Shown: piece by piece, positions 9,040-63,860 of the stretch
Position numbering within the stretch: the stretch's first letter is position 1
How the letters are laid out: the number at the start of each line of letters is the position of its first letter
Assembly (NCBI GenBank): GCA_003971905.1
Contig: RSEE01000094.1
Coordinates: 186,001 to 250,000 of the forward strand
Source: Moniliella sp. 'wahieum'
Lineage: Eukaryota
Length of the DNA: 64,000 nt
Reading direction: 5' to 3'
Made by a program: the position numbers and the translations under genes
The notes under the pieces: generated by a model
Seen by the model: only the letters and a program-made list of their open reading frames with translations
Told to the model about the DNA's origin: nothing
The model's database searches: none

Positions 9040-9130
9040 GATAATCGATAGCTAGTAACTTAGCCAAGTAATCGATAATCGATAATCAACGATCGCGACC
9101 ATTGATCGATGACCATCGATCATCATGCAT
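9040..9130. repeat. Palindrome-core heptamer cluster (TAATCGA / TGATCGA-like)
   Basis: (TAATCGA)2+TAATC at 9069-9087 with neighbouring ATCGAT/ATGCAT words, upstream of the ABC transporter gene. Confidence 0.7.
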
Positions 9131-9712
9131 CCACCAAACCCCCCCCTGCCAACCCTACTCCTTAGCCCTGCTCTTCCCCACCCGTGTAATGCACATACAA
9201 CTCGCTCTGCTTACCTCCAACCCACACTGCCCCCTTTTCAGCCGAGCATCTTTCTGACCAACCAATCATCTGCACCCGCTCCAAAGCCGTGCCCAAACAG
9301 AGAACTGGGTCAGCCACGACTAGCATGAATGGATGGCTTCGGCCGCGAGGACACGCCGTTGAACCGGATGCCCACCACCGCCTCCACTCTCTACTACACT
9401 GACAATCATTGCCCTGTGGCCACGTCCAAAATGAAGGCGAGCCTGGGTCGTTGTGCTCCCTTGTCGATGTTCCCGTCTCCAGTTCAGTTCATTTTTGTAC
9501 GGGCACCAAGAGGTTGCGTATTCTCTACACTGACAAAGACCTGCGTGTCCCAAACTGCTTGAACTGAATAGTGCACCTCCCCGGAAACTCCTCCCACCGA
9601 TGAATCGGTCATACTGGCACAGGCTTCAGGCTCTGCGATTCCCATCATGCCCGTGTCACAGTCGGGCTAAGGCGAGGGAGACCAGAATCGGGACTAGGCC
9701 AAGGGGTGTAGC

Positions 9713-10095
9713 ATGATGAGACCTGGATTCCAGATGGTCCTTCGAGGGTGATGCAATCGCAATAGTGGTGGTGGTGGTGGTGGTGGTGGTGGTGGTGGTC
9801 TAAGCCAACCAGCAACGCCTACTGAGGAACATCAAGCAGCGAGTCGCCACCAGGGGCTAAGCTGCGGAACAAGGAAAAACAGGAGAGAGAAAAACAACGG
9901 AACTCCTAGGCCTGAGGAGGAACTGAAGGGACATTGGCCAAAGCACGAGCCACCTGGCTCAACATAGCAATCGTTCGTGGGGAAGAAGCAAGAGCAGAGG
10001 ACATGATGCAAAGTGGAAGGAACAGGGAAGGAGCGAGACGCTCGAGACGAAGAATTGGAAATGATGGGGGAGCGAGATCAGCCAAACTATGACAG
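9713..10095 (+). repeat. Degenerate dispersed repeat (probable retroelement/LTR remnant) containing a (TGG)n tract
   Basis: 9713-9963 matches the reverse complement of 29367-29585 (e.g. GGAACTCCTAGGCCTGAGGAGGAACTGAAGGGACATTGGCCAAAGCACGAGCCACC). 9966-10095 matches 18402-18528 in direct orientation. (TGG)n at 9765-9799. Confidence 0.8.
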
Positions 10096-11274
10096 CCCGC
10101 GTCATGGCATTATAGGGAGCATCAAAAGGCCGCATCAAGACCGTTGGCTGCACACCATAACGAACCCAACGACGCTGCCATGTTCTGCTTCTCATCGTCC
10201 AGCAGGCATTTCCCCATCGCGTTTTCGTTTTCGCCGTGAGCATCAAGAGTTACATGTTACATGTTACAAGGGAAATCCCCCATAAGTGTGTTGCTGCAGA
10301 TGCCCTCTCCTGGCTCGAAAGGGTGGTAGGGCTACTCTATAGGGTACCGTGGGGACAAGACGGATGCTGCTGAGCCTGACCGGTGGTGCGCGGTTGCAGA
10401 TCCCTTGTTGGAAGGATGCGTGACACAGACATTGCCCCAACGTCCAAAGGTAGCGTTTTCAGCTTCAAGCTTCGCGCTTCCTAACCCCGGATATCAGCAT
10501 ACCGTTTCCCGGGGGCGCAAGCGCAGACAGGCGCAGAGCAGACACACTGTCCCATGCGGGGTATTGTGTCTTTCATGATGCATGATGCGGACGCCCTATG
10601 ATGCATGATGCCCCCTTTGATTAAATGACCTGAGACAGGAGGAGGCCGTGAGCGCGTCACGCGTCAGGCGCCAGGCCGGGGACACGTGGACAGCTTGGTA
10701 GCGGGCTCTGCTGGACAAGAAAGATGGAGCTACTTTGGGGCAGGTGTGGGTGGCGCCAGTCCGACCAGGCAGGCCGGACACCCGCCGCGAGCGCCGGAGC
10801 ACGCAACACTGGCGCCATGGCGTGGTGCGCATCTCACGCGGGCGGCAGGCGCACCCAGGGCAGGGCATGAGGTAAGCGTCAGACGTCAGCGCATCACGCG
10901 TCAGGCGCAGGCGCCTGCCAGGGCCATACCAACCTCACCGATCGCAGCGCATCACCCATGCGGCATGCTGCCACCCGCCCAGAGCGCGCCTGTGCGCCCA
11001 GCGCCTGGGCCCTGTCCAGACGGAATCGTTGCGCACGACGGGCCACGACTCGGATCCACCGCCGCACCAGCCCACTCTCGGGCGGCGCTGCGGCCCCTCT
11101 CTCCGCCGTCTGCGGCCGGCATGCGGCGCGGCCTTGGGGGTGGCAAGCTGCCTGTCTTCCTGCCCGCGCACCAGCTGCTCGGGCCCAGACCCACCCACCT
11201 GCTCCGCCTCCTCCCCTCCTCCCACCACCGCTCCGCCGGCCTTCCCCCACCCCCTTCCATCTGCTTCCTCCGCC

Positions 11275-62175: not shown

Positions 62176-62259
62176 AAAGAGGCCACAAAAGAGAAAGTCA
62201 TAAACAGCGAAACACAATCTATAATGTTTCGTTACTTTATCGTTTCATCCTTCGAGATC

Positions 62260-62555
62260 TCAGTGATTGAGTACCGCTGAGGCCCTCAGTGAGGCTGAGG
62301 CCGCTGAGGCGCTGAAGACAAACCCCCCAGAAGTTTGAACATTGCACGAAGAAGGAGGGACCTAGAGCAACGAGCAGAGGCCACATAGCTGCACCGCCTT
62401 CGACAAAGCGCAAAGCACAGCGAACACATGCTCCCTCTCTACCCCATATGGACAGCCAGCGCAACACCAGGCCCGAGCGTCGGGGTTGGACGTGTTGAAC
62501 GTTGAACGTTGGTTGAGCGTTGAGCCGTTGACCAGTTGAATTGAGCACGTTCATC
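62260..62555. repeat. Heptamer cluster (TGAACGT and TGAGG.. variants)
   Basis: (TGAACGT)2 at 62496-62509 followed by TGAGCGT-TGAG; repeated CTGAGG words at 62277-62315. Confidence 0.65.
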
Positions 62556-63419
62556 ACATCCAGTCTTCCCCCCTTCTTCTGCTCGATCTGATCGCCAAGG
62601 ACAGGACACGTGGCATCTAATGTGCCCGCCCACGTTGGCTCCGCGGCTCAGCTGGGCTGAGACGCTGAGGTTCTGTCAAGCATACGCTTGAGAAGATGCA
62701 ACTGCGATGCGGCCTCTGGCGGCCTTCGGTCGTCTTCGGAGCGAGTCACCCACCCACCCGGCTTCTTCAGACATCGTGTCCCTCTGGGGTGGCAGCGAGG
62801 AAACGGGGGCCTGGGGTGGGCGCAAGCAGACGCATATGCTTTTGCGTATTCAATGTGGTCAGCGGCGCTCACGGTGAGCGGGAGCTGCTGCTATGTGCCG
62901 TTGCGGGCCCAGAGATCCTGAGGCCATAGGCCCGATGCATGATGCACAACCGGTGGTGTTGGGCATGCACCGGCAAACTGGAGGTGCACGGGCAGGAAAA
63001 CCGAGGTGTTGTACTTGTTGTGTATAAGGTAGCCTACGTCGTATATATCACGCAGACCACCTGTGCTTGTTGGGCAGATTGGGCCGGAATATCACATGCA
63101 TATACTTGCGCCTCACTATGGCCCGTTCCGTGTCTGTTCTCCAGATCTCCGCAAATGGTTCGGAACGCGGTGGCCTGAGGACTGGGTGTCCTTCCAGCCA
63201 GGTGACCTGCATCTTCCACCTCTTCAAGCGGAGAACCCACAAGAGGGCGGCGTAGCGGAAGGCAGGACGGCACGCAATAGCAGGCCATGCAGAGCTGAGA
63301 GTGCCTGCCTGCGCCTGCCCCAACGCACCTGCCAACTAGGTGTGCTAGGGTTGCCCGTAGCGGGACAAAACGGCAGGGTTGCAGCGCTTGGCAGCCTGGT
63401 TGTAGCAGATGCGGTGAGC

Positions 63420-63860
63420 ATCAGTGCATGATGCATGCTGCCGCCATGCCGCAGATCAAGCTTGACTTGAAGCTTCAAGGGGGATGCACGGGGGCAGCGA
63501 TGCACGTGCTTGCCCGACGCCCATTGCAGCCCATTCTACGCAGCGCGAGGCCGACGCGCAGTTAAGCGAATGCTCAAAGCTAGCCAACGTGTGAAGCAGT
63601 TGACGTTTAAAAACAACGTTCACCGGTCACCCCAGATGCATGATGGCGCATGTAACCGCACCTGGCATCTGAGACGAGGGGATCACCAGCTGAGGAGCCC
63701 ACTGGGTGATCGTCCATGGTTGGAGCTTGGAGTAAGATGATCGATGGTCGATGATCGATGATCGATGCACCTGATGGGATCAGACAGGCGCGTGCTGGAG
63801 CCGCGGTGCGACGCAGCCTGCAGCAGCTGCAGCCCTGGCTGCATCATGCATGCATGTGCC
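63420..63860. repeat. Heptamer cluster (TGATCGA, TGATGCA, TGAAGCT)
   Basis: TGATCGA-TGGTCGA-(TGATCGA)2 at 63738-63765; TGCATGATGCATG ~63425-63437; TTGAAGCTTCAA ~63467-63478; ATCATGCATGCATG ~63843-63856. Confidence 0.75.

Follow-up and report, generated by a model that had tools for sequence, protein, structure and literature searches.

The 64,000-bp stretch of DNA examined here (the window) corresponds to bases 186,001-250,000 of contig 94 in the 69.5-Mb, 223-contig assembly of Moniliella sp. 'wahieum'. Eight coding segments were recognised in it, five with database support and three from their translation, and the DNA outside them carries many short tandem heptamers in which a T-N-A triplet alternates with a palindromic core of four bases. 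The mannose-1-phosphate guanylyltransferase of the window shares 77% identity with its counterpart in Tilletiaria anomala and 74-77% with those of other smut fungi and, judged from these identities, the host is a Ustilaginomycotina-like fungus. We consider it probable that the heptamers are the excision footprints of a transposon that duplicates 7 bp, left by way of hairpins that are flush with the element, as those of RAG are, and opened 2 nt from the tip, and that repeated hits and slippage built the arrays. The single footprints will be referred to as scars.

Statistics were obtained from 80 sequences (846,199 bases) consisting of the window and 79 hand-picked stretches, a non-random sample that covers 1.2% of the genome. 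The counts below refer to this sample unless the window or the genome is named, and the expected numbers for a TNA-palindrome-TNA match were taken from an order-4 Markov model. Many regions are present as two or more diverged duplicate copies, which served as natural comparisons of empty and filled sites. Contigs of the assembly are abbreviated with a C, so that C17, C62 and C2 are contigs 17, 62 and 2.

The heptamers were first described in a sequence-only reading as a family that joins T(G/A)A to any 4-bp palindrome, and all 20 of the arrays it cited are present where it placed them. In the window 80 of the 145 TRA-N4-TRA matches have a palindromic core, where about 1/16 is expected. TGA-palindrome-TGA has 572 occurrences where 26.9 are expected, and TAA-palindrome-TAA has 124 where 3.4 are; all 16 palindromic cores are in use, each is enriched with TGA, and the effect is confined to the 4-base spacer. 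Cores with one mismatched pair are enriched 2.5-3.4-fold, as decayed copies would give. The TNA-palindrome class makes up about 2.7% of the possible units and accounts for 232 of the 429 perfect period-7 tandem loci, and the same grammar was not found at other periods among the perfect tandem loci. No other 7-base repeat of the sampled DNA is as common as the heptamer scars. Additionally, one 17-mer of the window has 2,280 matches in the genome while its reversed control has none, and extrapolation from the hand-picked sample gives about 49,000 loci of the main scar class genome-wide (bootstrap 41,000-57,000).

The proposed avoidance of coding DNA was also borne out. No match lies in the 9,768 bases of the eight coding segments of the window, and in the sample 55 clusters lie inside long open frames and 492 outside them, a depletion of about 3.7-fold per TNA triplet. 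The scars are clustered, with a variance/mean ratio of about 2.1 per 500 bp. A diverged second copy on another contig also carries the arrays at 30444 and 36482, and this speaks against base-calling error as their source. Palindromic cores make up 77 of 123 in the window, 7 of 80 in 12 metagenome loci judged to be fungal and 18 of 117 in 68 other loci; the metagenome scan gave no close relative (the best match was 71%). Heptamers of the ATCGTGA/ATCACGA type in intergenic DNA of Ustilago maydis could be a related case with a single core; none of the papers listed by full-text search contained the heptamer looked for.

The grammar differs from the first description in two respects. The fixed TRA anchor turned out to be a strand convention: TGA and TCA are one triplet read from opposite strands, as are TAA and TTA, and the anchor is therefore T-N-A with any N. 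Both N must match, as pairs with equal N are enriched 21-36-fold and pairs with unequal N 1.4-3.2-fold, perfect palindromes included. The core is likewise not freely chosen, as the two flanking bases serve as its template. Perfect runs are most often 12 bases long (178 of 594 loci), and periodicity reaches 2 bases past the TNA pair on one side only, to the right at 98 loci and to the left at 92; it reaches 2 bases on both sides at 21 loci, where about 46 are expected under independence. The 12-base run and the one-sided extension give the basic unit ab-TNA-wx-x'w'-TNA-wx, in which the 12-mer is TNAwx-x'w'-TNAwx, or its mirror ab-TNA-b'a'-ab-TNA-wx. Each unit thus combines a duplication with a two-base inverted copy of the flank. 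In the window the templated flank is seen on the right in a two-round +7 array of TAA with a TCGA core (9069..9087, plus strand) and in a TAA/GGCC array (40535..40553, plus strand), and on the left in a TAA/CATG array (10249..10268, minus strand). Ordinary slippage microsatellites were rejected as an explanation because of the inverted filler, the TNA centre and an empty allele that holds no repeat. Joints with an odd centre, as made by Ac, are at most weakly enriched and were also rejected, the observed counts being only 1.2-1.5-fold above those expected (418/359, 94/70 and 22/14).

The spectrum of joints was determined on one strand after self-complementary sites had been dropped, and observed counts, in classes that overlap, were compared with the mean of three Markov simulations. 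The two trimmed +7 forms occur 232 and 199 times (3.0 and 1.7 simulated). The whole 7-bp site is present twice with two palindromic bases in between in 45 cases (24 and 21, against 0 and 0 simulated) and with one palindromic base in 72 cases (33 and 39, against 0.3 and 0.3). Joints that combine palindromic bases of the two site ends have one base from each in 9 cases and two from each in 2, with 0 simulated for either, and pure 7-bp duplications were found 43 times against 2.0. Three palindromic bases beside an untrimmed copy did not occur in this spectrum, and sites centred on ANT, CNG or GNC did not show the pattern. The forms constitute a graded series from period 6 to period 11. When the length of the duplicated site was varied, the untrimmed form with two palindromic bases was counted 54 times for a 7-bp site, 0 and 0 times for an 8-bp site and once for a 9-bp site, and duplications of 8 or 9 bp were rejected on these counts. 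When no centre was assumed, 33 of 87 untrimmed scars were centred on TNA, against a background of 3.8%. The products of the process and the register of its target are directly visible.

Six untrimmed period-9 scars lie in the window, all on the plus strand: 16126..16141, where the full 7-bp site is present twice with 2 palindromic bases between the copies, 30699..30714, which is also present in the second genome copy with one substitution, 39825..39840, 40617..40632, 54089..54104 and 62294..62309. A period-8 array (30444..30480, plus strand), in which the 7-bp site alternates with one palindromic base, is also found in the second genome copy. The period-11 form (21701..21718, plus strand) consists of the 7-bp site twice and a 4-base filler with palindromic bases from both ends.

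The duplicate copies show what the process adds. In 73,190 aligned columns there are 11, 7, 19, 9 and 3 clean indels of 5, 6, 7, 8 and 9 bases, respectively. Nine of the 19 clean 7-bp indels have a scar in one copy where the other has a repeat-free site (7 centred on TNA, the others on TGG and AAA), and 3 alter the copy number of an existing array. In the window, the single +7 scar at 34547..34560 (plus strand) has the site GA-TGA-CA, for which the second genome copy on C2 is the empty site. Only 1 of 31 clean indels of 5, 6, 8, 9 or 10 bases carries two palindromic bases, and it is a period-9 form at a TGA site. A 14-base indel between duplicated copies corresponds to two rounds on one empty site. 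Additionally, one transposon terminus contains a period-9 scar that is absent from six paralogous termini, and this scar is therefore an insertion.

Mixed arrays provided a further prediction. If left-hand and right-hand events take place at one seed site, the array should have two cores and its outer flanks should repeat ab and wx of the seed. The predicted left flank was found in 22 of 27 mixed arrays, the right in 19 and both in 16, where the chance is 1/256. The array at 22293..22323 (plus strand) has the seed AG-TAA-TC with one left-hand scar (CTAG core) and right-hand scars (TCGA core), and both of its outer flanks match the prediction. The longest mixed array (21549..21623, minus strand, 10.7 units) has TGCA cores outside at both ends and GGCC cores inside, and pure duplications of its 7-bp seed site, CATCAGG, link these parts.

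From these products we infer a hairpin chemistry and the action of a host nuclease. It is known that hAT, Transib, RAG and MULE enzymes produce hairpins on the flanks which host nucleases open, as described in the part of PMC5499845 available to us. In the portion of PMC3528771 consulted, RAG cuts at the exact border and the hairpin is opened mostly 2 nt 3' of the tip, as for Artemis. The element would insert at a 7-bp site ab-TNA-wx and duplicate it; the register is seen at element ends and the duplication through the scars only. At excision each flank would be sealed as a hairpin flush with the element end, like those of RAG, since the palindromes are even-centred. A host nuclease would open the hairpins mostly 2 nt past the tip to give the 4-nt 3' overhangs wxx'w' and b'a'ab. 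End joining would then align the overhangs and fix one strand, always with a gain of 7 bases. Joining on the top strand would give the right-hand scar ab-TNA-wx-x'w'-TNA-wx and joining on the bottom strand its mirror. Fill-in or trimming could give the rarer forms of period 6, 8, 9 and 11, with fill-in for 8, 9 and 11. As a scar creates a self-complementary site with cohesive overhangs, each renewed hit would extend it by exactly one 7-bp unit, mixed arrays would arise where a seed is hit on both sides, and slippage probably adds copies. An insertion of 7 bases shifts the reading frame, and scars would thus survive mainly outside coding DNA. This hairpin-joint model accounts for the constant gain of 7, the equal N, the even-centred core and the flank that is templated on one side only. 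The sequence-only reading had offered a choice between a binding factor and a process of fold-back or template switching; its fold-back process comes close, as the core repeats the two neighbouring bases in inverted form, but the joint spectrum, the 7-bp duplication and the element ends that adjoin NN-TNA-NN point to hairpin-capped double-strand breaks from transposon excision and not to template switching in replication. The factor that it proposed to read TRA half-sites at 7-bp spacing is not needed.

The responsible element is most likely an EnSpm/Tnp2 family of the CMCT clade with CACAGTG ends. A PF02992 search of the genome located one gene each on contigs 17 and 34, and contig 62 has a syntenic copy; the Tnp2 domain match has an E value of 8e-14 and a C-x2-C motif is visible in the translation. 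A DNA search with the 3' portion of the contig-17 gene together with the sequence flanking it revealed a conserved terminus about 250 bp beyond the Tnp2 reading frame. On the inner strand it starts with CACAGTG (for example L088 7484-7490 on contig 17), and it adjoins NN-TNA-NN at all five independent sites, represented by seven sequences that retain the end (an eighth match lacks the last bases and was left out), where the chance is about 0.038 per site. At four of the five sites the NN-TNA-NN is self-complementary, and some of these sites lie inside scars. Many copies of the terminus stand alone as remnants of 30-170 bp that lack an interior and lie in scar-rich DNA (L188-L192 and L036; C93, C66, C20, C45 and C113), and these lone termini are possibly the products of abortive or one-ended events. 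No further Tnp2 copy was found in the sampled stretches with the Tnp2 profile, the matches listed for the Tnp2 fragment include no longer homologue, and its nearest proteins are unnamed and only 25-40% identical. At distances of 12 or 23 bases inward of CACAGTG, no nonamer resembling that of an RSS was recognised. A domesticated transposase at C17/C62 was considered and rejected, as the pair shows no sign of purifying selection: its differences are equal over the three codon positions (14/18/16), which together with the broken reading frame indicates that the gene is dead.

Several observations weigh against this assignment or against the excision model as a whole. A second end with a matched 7-bp duplication was not found at C17/C62, nor was a second end seen in the limited stretches read at C93, C66, C20 and C45; at C93 and C66 the other end is not located about 5 kb inward. 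At C20 the 7-mer of the flank recurs about 170 bp inward with no CAC-type end, which is ambiguous. Only three Tnp2 genes were detected in the genome, all of them broken, and a handful of element ends is set against the estimated 49,000 scars. The CACAGTG terminus is absent from the 64-kb window, and a de novo search of the window and the sampled stretches found no inverted-repeat elements with 7-bp duplications. The genome searches for transposase families scored only the best candidates, so that their results are lower bounds and other transposases may have been missed. What connects the family with the scars is their shared target, and not an excision seen to take place. Among the clean 7-bp indels, 7 of 19 fall outside every class, 2 of the 9 de novo events have a centre other than TNA, and that the 7-bp indels are gains is an inferred direction. 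Lastly, CMCT elements are reported in the accessible text of PMC12730594 with CA..TG ends and duplications of 2-5 bp, not 7.

It is improbable, in our estimation, that the same hairpin excision was carried out by another or an additional 7-bp-duplicating family (hAT7, Kyakuja or one that was not detected) and that the CACAGTG element only shares or favours the target. Such families exist, as hAT7 and Kyakuja duplicate 7 bp in basidiomycetes (PMC12730594, in part), no intact Tnp2 element was found here, and the family searches are lower bounds. The profiles PF05699 (hAT) and PF18758 (KDZ) had no match in the genome, which is weak evidence as the controls were silent too, and PF10551 and PF18759, used to search for MULE and Plavaka, also had none, again weak evidence. 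The Ac/Ds palindromes are odd-centred (PMC5873905, in part), a form barely above chance here, and the terminus linked to Tnp2 keeps exactly to the 7-bp register at all five sites. An equally small probability is assigned to templated mutation in which no element takes part, either a short-range template switch or the fold-back repair of a host-nuclease nick or break at TNA, with 2-3 bases copied backwards and re-annealed upstream. In its favour, the dominant form also reads as 3 inverted and 4 direct bases re-annealed at T, the de novo event with the centre AAA fits only the 3-base reading, and element ends are very few compared with scars when the events are recent and the detected transposases dead. 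Against this, templated mutation predicts neither the sharp 7-bp duplication nor the excess of pure 7-bp duplications, nor the palindromic joints from two ends (of which the 2+2 form is represented by only 2 cases and the 1+1 form by 9). It also leaves unexplained why transposon ends are in register with the site and why ANT, CNG and GNC centres have no pattern.

The least probable of these alternatives, to which we give very little credence, is that the heptamers are selected binding sites, or hairpin or cruciform elements, that are read by a chromatin or DNA-binding factor and spread by slippage. The non-coding location, the clustering and the dense stretch at 21238-22956 upstream of a gene would agree with it. 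A binding site, however, needs neither a core that mirrors the local flank nor two equal middle bases, the sites are polymorphic between close copies, and the forms are graded from period 6 to period 11. The depletion in coding DNA needs no factor, since the frameshift caused by a 7-bp insertion suffices. In the excision-scar reading a function for the repeats is unnecessary, and some arrays may have been co-opted later for function.

The excision scars can be compared with several known systems. Like the P nucleotides of V(D)J joining by RAG1/2 and Artemis, and like Transib, they point to flush hairpins and to even palindromes of 1-2 bases with 2 dominant (PMC3528771, in part), and the element end CACAGTG is the RSS heptamer as given in the consulted part of PMC1131882. 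Unlike Transib, for which the same source gives a 5-bp duplication, the duplication here is 7 bp. A further difference is that the protein here matches PF02992 and that the scars accumulate genome-wide in the germ line. The candidate shares with EnSpm/CACTA and the CMCT group (fungal EnSpm, ESTA and Plavaka, PMC12730594; CNEST, PMC12810828; both seen in excerpt) the PF02992 domain, a CAC...GTG-type end and the C-x2-C motif. The duplications reported in these excerpts are 2-5 bp (TA for CNEST), whereas the target here is 7 bp and centred on TNA; of the 5'-CA..TG-3' termini one end is present as CACAGTG in seven sequences, and its inverted-repeat partner was not found. The candidate element is accordingly CMCT-like and departs from canonical EnSpm in duplication length. 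Ac/Ds excision also leaves hairpin-derived palindromic additions beside the duplication, which are short in a fungus, and its palindromes are centred on one unpaired base that is the complement of the base beside the element (PMC5873905, in part); the scars here are even-centred, and the search for the hAT dimerisation domain gave no match, with silent controls. The hAT7 elements of rust fungi resemble the inferred element in their 7-bp duplications, and Kyakuja (KDZ) also duplicates 7 bp and lacks inverted repeats (PMC12730594, in part), the KDZ search of the genome having given no match, again with silent controls.

Some microsatellites that form hairpins are quasi-palindromic, such as the CNG triplet repeats, in which a unit of odd period is a palindrome plus one base. 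The heptamers share this construction, and slippage probably lengthens their arrays as well. They differ from such repeats in that only period 7 and T-N-A centres are seen, single 12-mers outnumber arrays and the unit is copied from the flank.

The remaining scars of the window are distributed as follows. Arrays of TGA/AGCT are located at 15691..15707 (plus strand), 20097..20113 (minus), 21270..21299 (plus, four units), 40328..40346 (minus) and 58225..58240 (minus). Arrays of TGA/TCGA are located at 36482..36498 (minus, identical in the second genome copy) and 63736..63767 (plus). Two TGA/TGCA scars (10574-10588 and 10598-10611) lie within 10574..10611 on the plus strand, a TGA/CATG array of four units lies at 22088..22114 (plus), and at 62494..62531 (plus) a TGA/ACGT array is followed by a pure 7-bp duplication. 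Two clusters have no assigned strand, one of three scars with the cores TGCA, TCGA and AGCT (30865..30939) and one of four loci with the cores GTAC, GTAC, GATC and CGCG (47055..47224). The scar-dense non-coding stretch 21238..22956, also unstranded, holds 18 of the 62 perfect-run loci of the window and lies upstream of a minus-strand gene that starts at about 21212. A perfect 16-bp palindrome of TGA/TCA half-sites near 23714 (window 23710-23730) is not of the scar type.

Interspersed repeats occupy 18889-19730, 17150-18000, 61345-62176, 9530-10100 and 29350-29890 of the window, and no scars were found inside 18889-19730 or three further repeats of the window. As the source of the scars, the repeat at 18889-19730 (840 bp) was considered and rejected, since it is a solo long terminal repeat (LTR; TG...CA) with 5-bp duplications in other copies. 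It is present in at least 38 copies at 91-97% identity, and the flanks of the window copy have no clean 5-bp duplication. One copy of this LTR (L082) was inserted into a pre-existing heptamer array.

A 7-kb block of the window (29891-36879) has a 93% identical copy on contig 2 (G000:C2:251667-258695), and copies of the remaining window are much less alike (69-90%). At least 8 copies of the rps6 gene region are present, several of them as 94% identical pairs. The assembly may be polyploid, hybrid or mixed. A nearly identical (99%) inverted duplication of about 3.5 kb is present in both homologous contigs (L070/L071 and L103/L104; C8 and C23), and L068 3819-5700 (C8) contains a 2.7-kb insertion made of two inverted LTRs that the homologous contig lacks. 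Frame shifts are apparent in housekeeping reading frames of the window (e.g. 11432-13039 and 53064-54254), and one-base indels predominate between duplicated copies (509 in 73 kb), which suggests uncorrected long-read errors.

What is described here is a known mechanism at an unusual scale and with an unusual target. No description of genome-wide scars of this kind was found in the full-text literature, with most subscription papers outside the search. Excision footprints are usually obtained a few at a time in laboratory assays, and here about 49,000 of one class are estimated, which make up more than half of the sampled perfect 7-bp tandem repeats. If the excision reading is right, tandem repeats arise by the repeated entry and exit of a transposon, and the genome holds a large natural record of excision chemistry, which for an EnSpm-type enzyme points to flush RAG-like hairpins and to their opening 2 nt from the tip. 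There would also be a CMCT-like lineage with a 7-bp T-N-A target, beyond the 2-5-bp range reported for the clade, and by counting scars one could trace past transposition and the accessibility of non-coding DNA. Caution is warranted as motif finders would label such scars as promoter elements. It is a long shot, in our view, that the scars are still being written although all detected Tnp2 copies are dead and the ends that remain are lone ones. The cutter could then be a RAG-like CMCT enzyme, maintained either by the host or by very few master copies, that acts on ends starting with the V(D)J heptamer and works with an Artemis-like opener. If true, the formation of V(D)J coding joints would have a counterpart in the germ line of a fungus, one that acts throughout the genome and continually writes palindromes beside genes, some of which would be co-opted for regulation.

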